Shown in pieces: positions 10,343 through 27,498 of a stretch of 64,000 bases of DNA. The notes below the pieces were generated by a model. The model was given only the letters and a program-made list of their open reading frames with translations. It ran no database searches and was not told the origin of the DNA. This stretch comes from a virus (Duplodnaviria; Caudoviricetes), in the IMG/VR virus record IMGVR_UViG_3300012983_000036, positions 1-64,000 of that record; one strand, 5' to 3'. Position numbers and translations under genes: made by a program. How positions within the stretch are numbered: the stretch's first letter is position 1; each line of letters opens with the position of its first letter.

Positions 10343-10404
10343 TTTAATTTAAAATAATTACTGAGACAATATTAAAAATTTTAAATTAATATCGTATAAT
10401 AACA

Positions 10405-10495
10405 CATAGGGTTTGAACGACATTTACATATTCATGATAAATCCTCCTTTCATTGAGCTCCGGTTTTCCTCCCGACCGGAGCTTACATTTTATTT
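10405..10495 (+). ncRNA. Candidate anti-RBS small RNA 1 (or structured leader)
   Basis: After CGTATAATA motif; contains antisense image of GAAAGGAGGATTTATCATG; hairpin agctccggt/accggagct with CCTCC in the loop. Confidence 0.45.
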
Positions 10496-10512: not shown

Positions 10513-10902
10513 ATGACTGACAATGACATGATGTTACAATTAATAGAACGTGCTAAGAATAAGGATTACTCTAAATTTCGATATTTACGAAATTGGAAAG
10601 ATTACCGGTATATCCGGCAAACCAAGAAGACTCTAGAATTAACTATCTCAGCTTTGCAGAAGGCCGCAGACAATACTCTAAAGTCTTACTGCCGTGAAGT
10701 AAGACGTGGTACTTCAGAAATTACTAGACTGGTAGCCTTTACTATTTTAAATAACACTTTAAAGTTCTATAAAGAAGAACTCGATATTATTAATCATATG
10801 ATTTACGAGTATGAAGCTTATCTTCTGTGTGGCAATTATGTAGCGGCTTTCTTTGGAGCTGAGCGAACTGATGCTGAATTGTGGGATCATAGAGAGGAAT
10901 AA
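10513..10902 (+). CDS. Hypothetical protein
   Basis: ATG 10513 in ORF 10453-10902. Confidence 0.65.
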   Translation: MTDNDMMLQLIERAKNKDYSKFRYLRNWKDYRYIRQTKKTLELTISALQKAADNTLKSYCREVRRGTSEITRLVAFTILNNTLKFYKEELDIINHMIYEYEAYLLCGNYVAAFFGAERTDAELWDHREE

Positions 10903-11129: not shown

Positions 11130-11297
11130 TATTGTATAATATTATGTAGAGATTTTTAATTTTGATAAGGATAACAGACTTAAAAATCTGTTATCCTTTT
11201 TAATTTTAGCTCCTCAAAAAAGGTCATTTTATAAGCTAAATTAAATACACCGGGTTGAGGTGTATAGTATATAAATTTAATAGAAAGGTGCGATGTC

Positions 11298-13532
11298 ATG
11301 CAAAGAGTTATTAAGCGTGACGGCCGTGAGGTCGAGTTTGATAAGACTAAAATTATCGAGGCACTCTCGTGTGCTAATAGAGAAATCATGAAATCGAAGC
11401 AGATTGGTCCGAGGAAGATTAATCAGATTGCTTCTATTATAGAAGAGCGTTGTAAGGAATATAAGCGAGCTATTAAAGTAGAAGACATTAATGATATGGT
11501 CGAAGATGAACTAATCTACCGAAATTACAACAATCTTGTCCGAGCCTTTATTCAGTATCGTTACAATAAAGAGCTTATTAGAAAATCAAATACAACTGAT
11601 GAATCAATTCTCAGTTTAATTAATCTAAATAATGAGGAACTCAAACAAGAAAACTCAAATAAGAATCCAGTGATTACATCTACACAGCGTGATTACATGG
11701 CGGGCGAAGTAAGTAAAGATCTTACACGTAGATTACTCCTAGATAGAGATGTTGTTCAGGCTCACGATGTAGGAGTACTTCATTTCCATGATACAGATTA
11801 CTATGCCCAGCGTATTCATAACTGTGATTTAGTCGACCTAGAGGATATGCTCCAGAATGGCACCGTCGTATCCGGAACTCTTATTGAGAAACCTCATAGC
11901 TTTGCTACTGCATGCAATATTGCAACTCAGATAGTTGCTCAGGTTGCTAGCAGCCAGTATGGCGGGCAGAGCATCACTCTCTCTCATCTTGCTCCTTTCG
12001 TAGACATTAGTCGACAGAAGATTAGAGCCGAGGTAGAAGAAGAACAACGTCTAGCATGCAATAAAACTTACAATGTGAACATAACTGAATTCTCAAATTC
12101 GATGAAAGACGCAATTGATGAAATTACTGAAAGACGAGTTAGGTCAGAAGTAAAACGTGGAGTACAGACTATTCAGTATCAGGTTAATACCTTAATGACT
12201 ACAAATGGTCAAGCACCATTTATCACAGTATTTGCTTACTTAGGTGAAGTCAAAGATAACCGCACTAGAAAAGATCTTGCCATGATCATTGAGGAAGTCT
12301 TACTGCAGAGAAGACAGGGTATCAAGAATGAGAAAGGTGTATGGGTAACTCCAGCATTCCCGAAGCTTATCTATGTACTAGAGGAATGCAATGCCCGTAA
12401 AGGATCTGAGTACTTCTACTTAACCGAGTTAGCAGCAAAGTGTACTGCTAAACGTCTAGTTCCTGACTATATTAGTGAAAAGATCATGAAAGAACTTAAG
12501 GAAGGTGGCTGCTTCCCTCCAATGGGTTGTCGTTCATGTCTTAGTCCTTGGTATGATGAAGACGGTAAGCAAAAATGGTATGGCCGCTTTAATAAAGGTG
12601 TTGTTACTGTAAACTTAGTAGATGTAGCTTGCGGCGCAGATGGTGAAAACTATGCTAAGGATCTAGCAAGCTTTTGGAAAAACTTTGATGAAGTACTTGA
12701 GCTTTGTCATAAGGCTCTCCTCTGTCGTTATGAAAGGCTTAAAGGTACTGTTAGTGACGTAGCTCCAATCCTTTGGCAGCATGGAGCAATTGCTCGACTA
12801 AAGAAAGGTGAGACGATCGATAAGTTACTTACAGGAGGCTACTCAACTATTAGCCTAGGTTACGCAGGATTGTGGGAGTGTGTAGTAGAACTTATTGGTA
12901 AGAACTTACTTACTGAAGAAGGTCAGGAACTTGGACTTGAGATCATGAAATATATGAATAAGAAGTGTGACGAGTGGAACCAGGAACTTTACCTAGGCTT
13001 TGGGATTTATGGTACTCCGCTAGAAAGTACTACTTACAAGTTTGCCAAGTGTCTTCAGAAGAGATACGGAATTATTCCCGGAGTTACTGATAAGAGTTAT
13101 ATTACTAATAGTTATCATGTACATGTAGAAGAACCGATTGATCCTTTTGAGAAACTCAGAGTAGAAAGTAAGTTTCAGAGACTTTCATCAGGCGGCGCAA
13201 TCAGTTACATAGAAAGTGCTAACTTGGAAAATAACATTGAAGCTATTCTTACTATCATCGAATATATCTATGATAATATTATGTATGCCGAAATTAATAC
13301 TAAGTCTGACTATTGCCAAGAGTGTGGCTGGGATCATGAAATCCTTATTGACGAAGATGAGTCTGGTAAATTAATCTGGAAATGCCCTAACTGCGGTAAT
13401 ACTGATCAGTCTAAGATGAATGTTGCTAGAAGAACATGCGGTTACATTGGAACTCAGTACTGGAACCAAGGTAGAACCCAAGAGATTAAAGACCGCTATG
13501 TTCACCTAGACTGCCATGAGTGTGGATGCTGA
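11298..13532 (+). CDS. nrdD: Anaerobic ribonucleoside-triphosphate reductase (class III)
   Basis: ATP cone (VIKRDGR..FD..KI), MGCRS, YITNSYH, CxxC..CPNC, RRTCGY glycyl-radical motif. Confidence 0.97.
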   Translation: MQRVIKRDGREVEFDKTKIIEALSCANREIMKSKQIGPRKINQIASIIEERCKEYKRAIKVEDINDMVEDELIYRNYNNLVRAFIQYRYNKELIRKSNTTDESILSLINLNNEELKQENSNKNPVITSTQRDYMAGEVSKDLTRRLLLDRDVVQAHDVGVLHFHDTDYYAQRIHNCDLVDLEDMLQNGTVVSGTLIEKPHSFATACNIATQIVAQVASSQYGGQSITLSHLAPFVDISRQKIRAEVEEEQRLACNKTYNVNITEFSNSMKDAIDEITERRVRSEVKRGVQTIQYQVNTLMTTNGQAPFITVFAYLGEVKDNRTRKDLAMIIEEVLLQRRQGIKNEKGVWVTPAFPKLIYVLEECNARKGSEYFYLTELAAKCTAKRLVPDYISEKIMKELKEGGCFPPMGCRSCLSPWYDEDGKQKWYGRFNKGVVTVNLVDVACGADGENYAKDLASFWKNFDEVLELCHKALLCRYERLKGTVSDVAPILWQHGAIARLKKGETIDKLLTGGYSTISLGYAGLWECVVELIGKNLLTEEGQELGLEIMKYMNKKCDEWNQELYLGFGIYGTPLESTTYKFAKCLQKRYGIIPGVTDKSYITNSYHVHVEEPIDPFEKLRVESKFQRLSSGGAISYIESANLENNIEAILTIIEYIYDNIMYAEINTKSDYCQECGWDHEILIDEDESGKLIWKCPNCGNTDQSKMNVARRTCGYIGTQYWNQGRTQEIKDRYVHLDCHECGC

Positions 13533-24400: not shown

Positions 24401-25346
24401 AAATGTAAGTTAGTGAGAGACAACTTATAAAATACATATTATAAAGGATGTTACATATGTTAAAATCAGAAAAAATTATTCTTTCTATTCTTAAAGGTTT
24501 AATCATAATCTTATGCCTTGGTGGTGCCTTTGCAATCTATGGTTCTGTGGGTGCTTGTGAGCAAAATCATATTACTATATTACAATGTCTTGTTCAGTCT
24601 GTACTCTCAGGTCTTGTAATTGCTTTCGCCTTTGTTCTCTTTGGTGTAAGAGAATATCTTAAAGAAAAATGTTTAAATAGAATTGAATCTAAAAAAGAAA
24701 TGGTTAGGAGGTAACTCTAATGTTAGAACAGTTAACAGCTTGGATAGCTGACTTAAAAAAGAAAGCAGAAAATGATGAAGACGGGATATTCTATTTTCCT
24801 AACACTAAACCTTATGCGTTTAACATCGTAGGGGGTTGGAGTGATGGTTTCTCAGAAGGATTTAACGACCTTCTTCATATCAGTAAAAGCAATCCGTCTT
24901 ATGCTATGAGTATTAAAATAGTCTGTAACGAAGCAGACCCTGATGTAAACTTTGATAACCTTGTAGAGCCTTGGGATGTTAATGAAGAGGAACCTGCAGG
25001 CCCTTGTGTTGCTATTGAACTCGAAGATGACCCTGCCCAGCTTGCTGAGTTTATTCTTTGTGAGTGGGAAAGAATTCAAAAAGAGTTCTCAGATCAGGAA
25101 TCAAATCAGTAAAGTTACATATAATATATAGAGGGAGTGATTTAAATGGCATTTGGTGCATACTATGGTCCATTAGAAACTTGGAAGGTTGTTTATAACC
25201 CGCCAGTAGGAACTGACTTAGCTCGAAGCGGTGGATGTGGAGTTGCTTTAATAGAAGCAGACTGTCGTCAGCAGGCTCTGCATAATTTTCAGGAGCAGTA
25301 CAGAGGTCAGTACACTACAGTCGCAAGTTGTACTAAACTTTTCTAA
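21455..25346 (+). other. Cluster of short early hypothetical ORFs, each unit with its own SigA-type promoter (21394, 22384, 22831, 24370)
   Basis: ORFs 21455, 21760, 22166, 22461, 22898, 23472, 23891, 24103, 24448 (two TM segments), 24720, 25146; RBSs present. Confidence 0.7.
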
Positions 25347-25439
25347 GTTCATAAATAAGAGTAGGGAGCAGGGTAATAATCCTGCTCTTGAATTTTTTTT
25401 ATAAAAGTATTAAATTTTAAAAGCTAGTACTGTATAATA

Positions 25440-25650
25440 TAGTACAGGTCATCACCCCCTCCGACCTGTTTGTATATAGGGATAGCAGGTTTTATATTTG
25501 TTTTTTTTTTCATAAAAATTCCTCCCTTTATAATACATTTGTTTTTGTTTGCGTAGACAATTTTGTTTGAAAGTTATAAATGTTTTTACCTCCCTTTTCT
25601 TTCATTTTAACTAAAAATTTTATACCTGCTATCCCTATTAATTTTAATTA
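25440..25650 (+). ncRNA. Candidate anti-RBS small RNA 2
   Basis: After CTGTATAATA; 5' hairpin acaggtc/gacctgt with CCCTCC loop; 15-bp stem 25476-25490/25624-25638 enclosing two further CCTCCC motifs; no + strand ORF. Confidence 0.55.
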
Positions 25651-25689
25651 ATATGTTAAATTACAAATAGTTTTATTGTATTATATAAT

Positions 25690-25833
25690 ATAAAAAGAAA
25701 ATAAAACATCTTTCATTTTCAAGTCCTCCTTTGACAATGATTTTCACCTCCCTCCTTTCTCTCTTGGATGTTTTCTTTCCTCCTATTTTCTTTTTATCTG
25801 AAGCTACGTGTTATGCGTAGCTTCTTCTTTTTT
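25690..25833 (+). ncRNA. Candidate anti-RBS small RNA 3
   Basis: After TTGTATTATA; 14-bp stem 25690-25703/25784-25797, inner stem aaaacatc/gatgtttt, four CCTCC motifs, terminator gaagctacg/cgtagcttc plus T tract. Confidence 0.6.
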
Positions 25834-25907
25834 CTAAAAATTGTTAAACCAAGTAAGTTTGTACTGTATAATATATAGGAAACAAAATAATATAGGAGGT
25901 AATTAAG

Positions 25908-27498
25908 ATGAGTAAGTATGTAAGATATTACAACACCCGACAGGATGCTTATCGTACTCTTGCTACTATGTGGGCAAACTGGATGAAAACTGCTCAGCCT
26001 GCACCTGCAGAGCTTGAAGGCGTTTCTAAGTTCTTTACACACATTGGTAAGAGATTCGGACTTATCAGCGAGTTTAAGAAGCTTGGTATTATTTAAAAAT
26101 TAAAGAGTAAGATAAATTAACCATAAGCAAAAGGCCTATGGTTAATTTTTATATCTAACAAATTTACCAGAATAAATAACTAAATATTGGTAAGATTGAC
26201 TATTTAATTTTATTTTAAAATATGATATAATATTTATATAAAATAATTTAGGAGGAAGCTATGTTAAAAATTGTTTTTGAATACCGTGACCAATATACAA
26301 ATGGTCGCTGGAATCAGCAATGCTGTAGCGTGTCTTCAATAGAAGAATGTAAGAGAATCTACGGCCTTGGTAAAGACTGTGATTATAAGATTATTTCTGT
26401 AGAAAAAATTGAGGAGGATTAACTATGCTTGACAACTTTGATACGATGCTGCAGTGTGAGGATCTCGATATGCTCTTAGACGCAATCGATTTCAATGACC
26501 AGTTTGAAGACCCAAGATATATCTATGAAGAATAAGGAGGTTACATATGAAATACTATCTTTTAGAATCTAGCCACTGGAATGATCAGCTTGAGTTTAAA
26601 TCTGAATTAGACCTAAGCGAAGGACAGTGCTTCAGGATTAAAAAACATGATAGTTCTAGACTTTATCCTACTCGGTTTAAAGTACTGGAAGTTTCGGATA
26701 CACCCAAGTATTCCGGTACGTTAGTAGAGATACTTGAGGTTAATACTGACGTAGAACCATTTTAAATTGAGGAGGTTAAATCATTAATGACTATAAATCT
26801 TACATTAGATGATAAATGTTATACCTATTATTTAGTTGAGAATCTGGATACTTTAAACCAGCTGCTCGAAGATCCTGAAGTCTCTCATGCTGATATGATG
26901 AAAGCTGTTGCAGACATTATACGTCCGGCAGACTACTATTATAGAGCAAAGCCAAGATTCTATGGTTACATACTTAATACTAAAAATAAAGAGGATCTGT
27001 ACATGCTCTGTATGAATGCTATTAGCAAAGCAGAGAGATTTGTTGCTTAATTTGAAATAAGGGAGGAATTAACTAATGTCTATTACACCTATGGAACCTC
27101 AGAAGGCTGTCGCAGTTGAATGTCTTGAAAAACTTAATATCTATAAACCCTATATCCGGAAGTTTAAATCTAAAGCTGGTATCCCATGTTTCTTTGAGAA
27201 CTATGCTGGCTTCTATGCTGACCAGGAAGAGAAACTCTGGAATAAGATTAAAGAAGTAGAACAGCAGTCTGGATGTCTAGTCTATGCTATTACTCATGAG
27301 CTTACTGATATAGGTCAGACCTGGTCTATGCTTTGCGTGCCGAAAGATATAAGTGATGTCGGGAAAGTGCTCTCAGAAAAAGGTGCAACACAGTTCTATG
27401 CCTTTGCTTATGTGTGGAATGAAACTACTCCTTACTTCTCTGAATTCGGTGATGTCGTAATCAGTTTTTCTTTCGGTGGTATAAAAAGACTTTTCTAA
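25908..27498 (+). other. Short hypothetical ORFs (25908, 26261-26422, 26425-26535, 26547, 26787, 27076)
   Basis: All with GGAGG RBS; 26261 (53 aa) and 26425 (36 aa) read manually, absent from the ORF track. Confidence 0.65.

Follow-up and report, generated by a model that had tools for sequence, protein, structure and literature searches.

The C-rich loops of small RNAs (sRNAs) such as RNAIII and RsaE act by pairing with Shine-Dalgarno (SD) sequences, and this class is typical of low-GC Gram-positive bacteria. Other RNAs soak up a protein, as CsrB and RsmZ do with CsrA. Regulatory RNAs of virulent phages are, to our knowledge, few and come mostly from Gram-negative models. Here we analyzed a non-coding unit at 25.44-25.84 kb of an uncultured phage (Duplodnaviria; Caudoviricetes), which carries seven copies of the anti-SD pentamer CCUCC (CCTCC in the DNA). 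The window, meaning the whole stretch of DNA that was analyzed, is the first 64 kb of the virus record IMGVR_UViG_3300012983_000036 in IMG/VR, which has 100,895 bp and was judged to be about 45% complete; all positions are those of the window. Comparison with related sequences gives good support to an RNA family, to its fold and to selection on its exposed CCUCC. Our best reading by analogy is that the RNA would be a phage-borne variant of the C-rich anti-SD sRNAs of low-GC Gram-positives, of the RNAIII, LhrC and csRNA type.

Two groups of described sRNAs and one protein-RNA complex are relevant to the locus. LhrC1-5 of Listeria monocytogenes contain three redundant UCCC sites, located in a loop, a linker and the terminator region, each of which can bind the SD region of lapB (PMC4132741). 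The streptococcal csRNAs present an unpaired stretch with an anti-SD and an anti-AUG sequence, and the anti-AUG is found in 53 of 61 members (PMC3091779). The KH domain of the assembly GTPase Era recognises GAUCA together with CCUCC (PMC10582724). An initial annotation of the window had described tandem structured RNAs with motifs resembling the 3' tail of 16S rRNA and had named no described phage system with such an architecture. The design does have precedents in bacteria, where RNAIII, RsaE, LhrC and the csRNAs follow this logic (PMC4132741, PMC3091779).

Conservation, fold and exposed motifs of the RNA

The non-coding gap is flanked on its left by a 66-aa gene (25146-25346) and on its right by a 62-aa gene (25908-26096). 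Relatives were obtained by fetching contigs from ENA, Logan, JGI and NCBI metagenome assemblies that carry homologues of the two flanking proteins. About eight distinct lineages were found, in which the flanking protein is 56-85% identical, and all relatives with both genes retain a non-coding gap of 336-595 nt. The same order of elements recurs in these gaps: a promoter motif, a 5' hairpin whose loop is C/U-rich, a long stem closing an interior with CCUCC and UUUUGUUUGA, a second module closed by AAAGAAAAUAA / UAUUUUCUUU, and then a lineage-specific GC-rich terminator. At the terminator position, each lineage has its own GC-rich hairpin followed by a U tract. The two modules are separable. 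Contigs L020 and L041 contain the second module only, directly behind a promoter of its own, and L044 has a miniature second module and no 5' hairpin.

A plain MAFFT alignment of 12 unit-A domains, which was fitted to no structure, was used to derive a consensus with RNAalifold. In the window, the unit A domain (25476..25638, + strand) is closed by stem S2 (25476-90/25624-38), which has 15 perfect base pairs and can be extended to 24 nt at 88%; the domain holds sites 2 and 3 of CCUCC and the conserved UUUUGUUUGA tract. The RNAalifold consensus was exactly S2, with 13 pairs, 11 of which show compensatory two-sided changes. Standard pairs occupy 92.3% of the S2 cells, versus 38-55% after a shift of the 3' arm by 1-3 columns, and none of 500 column shuffles reached the pairing or the covariation score of S2. 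The arm variants, each with its own complement, are GGGAUAGCAGG, GAGGUAGCAGG, AAGGGCAGCGGG, GGAGCAGCAGG, GGAGAGUGGCCGGAGAU, GGUGCUGCGGG and GAGCGGUGCGGA.

Two smaller hairpins also change in sequence among the relatives. The 5' hairpin HP1 (25444..25469, + strand) has 7 bp (ACAGGUC/GACCUGU) and a 12-nt loop, AUCACCCCCUCC (ATCACCCCCTCC in the DNA), with site 1 at 25458. In the relatives its stem sequence changes and the pairing is kept (ACAAGACAU/AUGUCUUGU, GCGGUCA/UGACUGC, GUGCAAG/CUUGCGC), and the loop stays C/U-rich, often reading (A/U)UCAC followed by pyrimidines. The inner hairpin of unit A (25572..25612, + strand) displays site 3, CCUCC at 25589, in a 20-nt loop, UUUUUACCUCCCUUUUCUUU. The outer stem bases of its equivalent are changed in L018, L026 and L034, and a shorter stem surrounds the same motif in L028, L022 and L023.

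The unit B domain (25690..25797, + strand) is closed by a 14-bp AU-rich stem (25690-703/25784-97) that runs into an 8-bp inner stem, and it holds sites 4-7. The closing arms, AAAGAAAAUAA and UAUUUUCUUU, are uninformative on pairing because they are nearly invariant across all lineages. MAFFT and RNAalifold gave no consensus pairs for unit B, whose interior is too divergent and whose arms are invariant, and hence no covariation statistic. Compared with dinucleotide shuffles, the fold of the window sequence has a z score of -5.5 for unit A and -7.3 for unit B. The stems, motifs and coordinates listed by the initial annotation are all present in the sequence, and its proposal passes the check that it had set itself, since CCTCC loops and stems do recur in relatives.

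CCTCC occurs 18 times on the + strand of the whole record. Seven copies lie at 25458, 25521, 25589, 25725, 25747, 25751 and 25779, two at 10443 and 10468, and nine inside open reading frames (ORFs); the clustering of seven of the 18 within 25458-25783 is far beyond chance. All seven motifs are unpaired in the minimum-free-energy fold of the window sequence, with an unpaired probability of 0.97. No other 5-mer is as enriched as CCTCC among ten non-redundant lineages, in which 33 copies were counted against 0.24 expected from the flanking DNA (135-fold); it was found in all ten, and TCACC in eight. In partition-function folds, the mean unpaired probability is 0.93 for motif bases, 0.44 for other bases and 0.48 for other C residues. 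On these comparisons, CCUCC appears to be the only strongly selected single-stranded sequence of the RNA family.

The surroundings of the motif are also informative. Site 2 (25521..25525, + strand) is an unpaired CCUCC within AAUUCCUCCCUUU; its orthologue is kept in L018, L026, L034, L022, L042 and L023 and reads CUUCC in L028. The interior of unit B is pyrimidine-rich and G-poor, with site 4 (25725) in a UCCUCC hexaloop, sites 5 and 6 (25747 and 25751) reading UUCACCUCCCUCCUUUCU, and the last site at 25779. The bases 3' of CCUCC are usually U/C-rich, and at least one (U)UCA-CCUCC-UU site is found per genome. Many sites read UCA-CCUCC-UUUCU, which is the 16S 3' tail, and the site in L045 is identical to the tail UCACCUCCUUUCU over 13 nt, in line with the likeness that had been seen in the window. 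Orthologous sites vary by pyrimidine transitions (CUUCC, CCUCU, CUCCC) and can still pair with GGAGG or GGGAG. The proposed structured, non-coding + strand unit is supported by the relatives, which keep both the covarying stems and the exposed motifs resembling CCUCC and the 16S tail.

The predicted transcription unit

The left boundary of the unit is an intrinsic terminator of the upstream gene (25364..25399, + strand) with an 11-bp stem and a T run, and a hairpin is kept at the same position in relatives. It is followed by the predicted promoter P1 (25410..25438, + strand), which consists of TTAAAT (25410-15), a 17-nt spacer and TG-TATAAT (25433-38) within CTGTATAATA. A second predicted promoter, P2 (25656..25684, + strand), lies between the two domains and consists of TTAAAT (25656-61), 17 nt and TATTAT (25679-84) within TTGTATTATA. 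Behind unit B, the non-coding unit has its own intrinsic terminator (25800..25835), with an 11-bp stem and a T run, on the + strand only. The right boundary is a third predicted promoter, P3 (25844..25872, + strand; TTAAAC, 17 nt, TATAAT), which would serve the 62-aa gene. Because P3 stands between them, the RNA is not simply the leader of the 62-aa gene; a cis leader or attenuator would have no promoter before its gene, and here both the terminator (25800-25835) and P3 (25844-25872) intervene.

The three promoters belong to a promoter-like repeat of 48 nt with copies at 25394, 25640 and 25828 (TTAAAY, 17 nt, TG-TAT(A/T)AT). Each copy contains the motif YGTATWATA, at 25431, 25677 and 25865, with TTAAAY 17 nt upstream. 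This motif is enriched, with 26 copies versus 5.9 expected, and 21 of the 26 are on the gene strand. At the P1 position, TGTATAATATA or CGTATWATA is present in all lineages; P2 is clear only in the window and in L018/L019, and is degenerate, weak or absent in the other lineages. We also noticed that TGTTAAAT is kept in relatives at the TTAAAY position upstream of YGTATWATA.

Because the second promoter is weak or absent outside the window and L018/L019, units A and B probably form one transcript in most lineages. The initial annotation had proposed two tandem RNAs with promoters of their own. This holds for the window and for L018/L019, and unit B stands alone in L020/L041, but it does not extend to the other lineages, where P2 is weak or absent. 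A transcription unit of its own is predicted, with terminators on both sides, P1/P2 upstream and a separate P3, and this arrangement is kept in relatives. The product would be a stand-alone non-coding RNA of about 390 nt when started at P1; in this phage, P2 would add a shorter form of 145 nt. The RNA would consist of two modules, each clamped by a long stem. The promoter motif and the U-tailed terminators point along the + strand in all lineages. We infer transcription from the + strand because of the conserved upstream promoter motif, the U tracts that follow the terminator hairpins on this strand only, and the orientation of all genes.

Possible modes of action

We give an even chance to a trans-acting base-pairing RNA that occludes SD sites. 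Up to seven CCUCC copies would be kept single-stranded in G-poor, pyrimidine-rich segments and in small loops between the stems, and several of them would be longer, reproducing the 16S rRNA 3' tail UCACCUCCUUUCU. The copies would pair in trans with the SD sequences of mRNAs (GGAGG, GGGAG), and this pairing would hide the SDs from the 30S subunit and possibly make substrates for RNases. The targets could be host messages with long canonical SDs, or the GGAGG-led genes of the phage itself; that the RNA pairs with SDs, and in which messages, is what we infer. The locus has three features of the C-rich or anti-SD sRNA class, namely a predicted unit of its own, no coding function and a conserved, exposed C/U motif complementary to SDs.

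Several results, however, weigh against this mechanism. A target scan covered the 164 + strand genes called in the 100.9-kb record, which represents about 45% of the phage genome. The longest complementarity between the RNA and a start region was 12 nt, and reversed, sense and shuffled controls gave 11-14 nt, so the comparison of loop segments with phage initiation regions, which had been suggested as a check, did not exceed its controls. The two best matches to start regions are not retained in relatives. In L018 and L022, the match of 12 nt to the 140-aa gene at 27076 is missing. Messages of the phage itself would be bound by a generic anti-SD as well: 56 of the 164 genes (34%) use GGAGG, and 133 have GGAGG, GGAG or GAGG. 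The number of sites, presented initially as seven, is not a fixed feature; it ranges from one to seven per RNA across lineages, and sites are gained and lost. Furthermore, HP1 loops often hold CCCCC, a poor partner for GGAGG, and the folding energy is similar on both strands (-700 kcal/mol on the + strand and -663 kcal/mol on the minus strand, summed over ten lineages).

The bases around the pentamer do not fit the phage genes well either. Phage SDs are mostly (U/A)AGGAGG(U/A), U-rich at -2 to -4. GGAGGTGA was found in two and AAAGGAGG in four of the 164 genes, and therefore the UCA...UUU extension is not mirrored by the visible phage genes; the conserved UCA 5' of CCUCC has a counterpart only in the two SDs with GGAGGTGA. 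Two sites in the window had been described as full antisense images of initiation regions. The complement of ATG in these images is lost in L022-L024, L026 and L034, and no sense counterpart was found among the 164 start regions of the 100.9 kb, and we rejected this description. The RNA looks like a generic anti-SD, or a copy of the 16S tail, and not like a regulator tuned to one phage message. The observation made in the initial annotation is confirmed, and its interpretation is partly supported.

A possible but less probable explanation is that the RNA serves as a protein decoy or sponge, in which exposed motifs resembling the 16S tail titrate a reader of that tail or of CU-rich single strands. 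Candidates for such a reader would be Era with its KH domain, a nuclease or toxin acting on the 16S 3' end, cold-shock proteins, or Rho. UCACC or CACCU lies beside CCUCC in eight of ten lineages, with one UCA-CCUCC-UU site per genome, and the UCA part could be paired by only two of the 164 phage SDs. The HP1 loops read AUCACC.., AUCACUUCC or AUCACCUUCC, and those of three lineages contain AUCAC. A high redundancy of sites within one RNA (here one to seven exposed copies) is typical of sponges such as CsrB and RsmZ, and the lack of a specific mRNA target among the 164 phage start regions agrees with such a function. Era recognises GAUCACCUCC (PMC10582724). However, this exact decamer is absent from the phage RNA, and most sites have UUCA instead of AUCA, whereas both adenines are stressed in that review (PMC10582724). 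At many sites UCA is missing altogether, and the C-to-U variants suit wobble pairing at least as well as reading by a protein. A blocked ribosome assembly has no evident benefit for the phage, and no candidate protein partner is encoded beside the RNA, where the neighboring proteins are without Pfam or PHROG match.

Also tentatively, the RNA could be a multi-copy mimic of the 16S 3' tail. As a general SD sponge, it would bind the long SDs of the host (AAAGGAGGUGA) better than the shorter, U-flanked SDs of the phage, leading to a shut-off of host translation; otherwise it would be a decoy for a host factor or a defense nuclease aimed at the 16S tail.

It is rather unlikely that the RNA is a local regulator masking the GGAGG of the six downstream genes (25908-27498), either in cis after terminator read-through or in trans close to where it is made. 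These six consecutive small genes lie directly downstream of the RNA (starts at 25908, 26261, 26425, 26547, 26787 and 27076), and all have a perfect GGAGG, at 25895, 26251, 26413, 26536, 26771 and 27062. They form the densest + strand GGAGG run in the 100.9-kb record, and it begins right after the RNA. Positions 25776-94 are 84% complementary over 19 nt to the start region of the 62-aa gene, and the RNA adjoins this gene in every relative that has both. The extended pairing, however, is lost in L018 and L020, and the RNA is set apart from the operon by a strong terminator and the separate P3. A run of six genes with GGAGG is only mildly unusual when 34% of genes use it, and the synteny is partly forced by the way in which the relatives were fetched.

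We consider a function of the minus strand very unlikely. In such a case, the strand would carry tiny genes with GGAGG ribosome-binding sites (29 aa at 25513, 11 aa at 25716 and 25452), which might represent a type I toxin whose antitoxin is the + strand RNA, or its GGA loops would form a CsrA-type sponge. GGGAGG-N7-ATG (29 aa, ATG at 25513) and AAGGAGG-N8-ATG (11 aa) are well formed on the minus strand of the window, the two strands have similar folding energy, and a gene caller placed a 41-aa minus-strand ORF in L034-L036. The initial annotation had named translation of these mini-ORFs as a finding that would speak against its proposal, and comparison across relatives revealed that they are not conserved. 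L022-L024, L026 and L034 have lost the minus-strand ATGs, and in L018 only five codons are left of the 29-aa frame. The longest minus-strand ORFs have 6-41 aa and share no frame or peptide, and the peptides are not hydrophobic. Across ten lineages, neither strand has a conserved ORF, frame or peptide; the weak peptide similarity is equal in all six frames, as nucleotide conservation by itself would produce. Neither a promoter nor a U-tailed terminator is present on the minus strand of the locus, the genes of the record all lie on the + strand, and S2 contains 15 G-U cells on the + strand versus seven that would be G-U on the minus strand. We therefore rejected minus-strand mini-ORFs and a type I toxin-antitoxin system, given ORFs of 6-41 aa that are unconserved and not hydrophobic. 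In the public gene calls, the 41-aa ORF is found at L034:2445-2570 and also in L035 and L036, and it is not conserved elsewhere; it is probably a false call.

A DNA-level element, i.e., an origin, packaging or recombination site whose inverted repeats act as DNA, is equally improbable, and an origin was rejected: the AT-rich gap does contain long inverted repeats and repeated 48-mers, but the arms covary and tolerate G-T pairs with no fixed protein-binding sequence, the 48-mers are promoter copies found genome-wide, the conserved pentamer is specific to one strand and not part of the repeats, and oriented terminators bound the unit.

Genomic setting and comparison with known RNAs

A third unit of the same design, unlinked to the first two, lies at 10391-10495 (+ strand). 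It is non-coding, with CCTCC at 10443 and 10468, and it contains a CGTATAATA promoter and a 5' UAGGGUUU able to pair with AAAUCCUCC, followed by a GC-rich hairpin whose loop includes UUUCCUCCCG and by a U-rich tail. Five relatives (L050-L054) have the same layout, in which a 5' UAGGGAUU is paired to AAUCCUCC and is followed by a GC hairpin with a UUCCUCC loop and a U tract. Since this third unit is conserved, the phage clade uses the motif more than once. The unit lies about 15 nt before the weak ribosome-binding site that precedes a 129-aa gene (10513-10902); it could be either a separate RNA of 85 nt or a leader that attenuates this gene. Another element was observed at 11133-11205, upstream of nrdD, where a short hairpin (GGATAACAGA...TCTGTTATCC) with a T run stands behind a TGTATAATA promoter and CCTCC is absent; it may be another small RNA or a leader.

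The phage is an uncultured, virulent-looking jumbo phage. A completeness of about 45% implies a genome of roughly 220 kb. The record has a GC content of about 33%, its sizeable ORFs are all on the + strand, and the window encodes a helicase, NrdD, a DNA ligase and an RNA ligase. The closest relatives of the helicase, with about 35% identity, are from phages of Bacillus, Clostridium and Streptococcus. The nearest cellular homologues of NrdD (11298-13532) are 63-67% identical and belong to metagenome-assembled genomes of gut Clostridia (Oscillospiraceae, Acutalibacteraceae and Lachnospiraceae), and this similarity is the best available hint on host and habitat. Because of the nearest relatives of the helicase and NrdD, the host is probably a member of the Bacillota of the animal gut, among the gut Clostridia.

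The proteins encoded next to the gap have no Pfam or PHROG match. A homologue of the 66-aa protein was found in L032:2001-2195 and in L033, where the contig has 46% GC and another gene context, and both the RNA and the 62-aa gene are missing; the 66-aa protein is therefore not tied to the RNA.

Sequence searches outside the fetched contigs were negative. A DNA search of GenBank phages gave no match. In IMG/VR, the 16-mer CACCTCCCTCCTTTCT had 10 unrelated chance matches, the S2 arms had none, and the unit-B arms had 33 chance matches, with no family member among them and CCTCC in only one; the flanking proteins retrieved only very distant, non-syntenic loci. None of the Rfam families, including RNAIII, RsaE, LhrC/rli, csRNA, 6C and 6S, gave a gathering-score match in the 64 kb, and at E values up to 10 the segment 25300-25950 gave only noise.

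The locus thus represents a conserved, structured RNA family in a clade of uncultured jumbo phages that probably infect gut Clostridia. If the pairing with SDs is true, the RNA would give phages an RNA route to reprogramme translation, with an aim like that of T4 RegB and different means. In that case, it would also be a compact scaffold of natural origin with which several ribosome-binding sites could be silenced in Gram-positives. If the decoy is true, it would point to a so far unknown host-phage conflict at the ribosome, and a mimic of the 16S tail, as sponge or as decoy, would be a phage strategy without earlier description.

Among the known systems, LhrC resembles the phage RNA in being a G-poor sRNA with several redundant CU-rich sites that pair with G-rich SD regions, so that one RNA may hold several messages. 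LhrC, however, is chromosomal, about 110 nt long and has three UCCC sites, whereas the phage RNA is predicted to have about 390 nt, is phage-encoded and has up to seven CCUCC, two long clamping stems and matches of 16S-tail length; a comparison with LhrC revealed no sequence or Rfam similarity. RNAIII of Staphylococcus aureus and the Rsa/RoxS class are similar in that a long multi-hairpin RNA binds the SDs of several targets with C-rich loops. RNAIII has no homology to the phage RNA and encodes hld, whereas the phage RNA is without an embedded ORF, and the UCCC motif of RNAIII and Rsa contrasts with the exact anti-SD pentamer in a phage context. The csRNAs share the combination of an anti-SD with an anti-start codon, the design that the initial annotation had seen at two sites in the window, but the anti-AUG is not conserved in the phage RNA, and csRNAs have about 90-150 nt with one such region.

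The 16S 3' tail itself is resembled by sites that read UCACCUCCUUUCU, with up to 13 nt identical (L045), and by HP1 loops with AUCAC and pyrimidines; unlike the tail bound by Era, the phage RNA never contains the full GAUCACCUCC and has no equivalent of helix 45. The phage RNA therefore differs from its bacterial analogues in its carrier, a virulent-looking jumbo phage, in its two long clamps, in the full anti-SD pentamer with extensions of 16S length, and in having up to seven sites.

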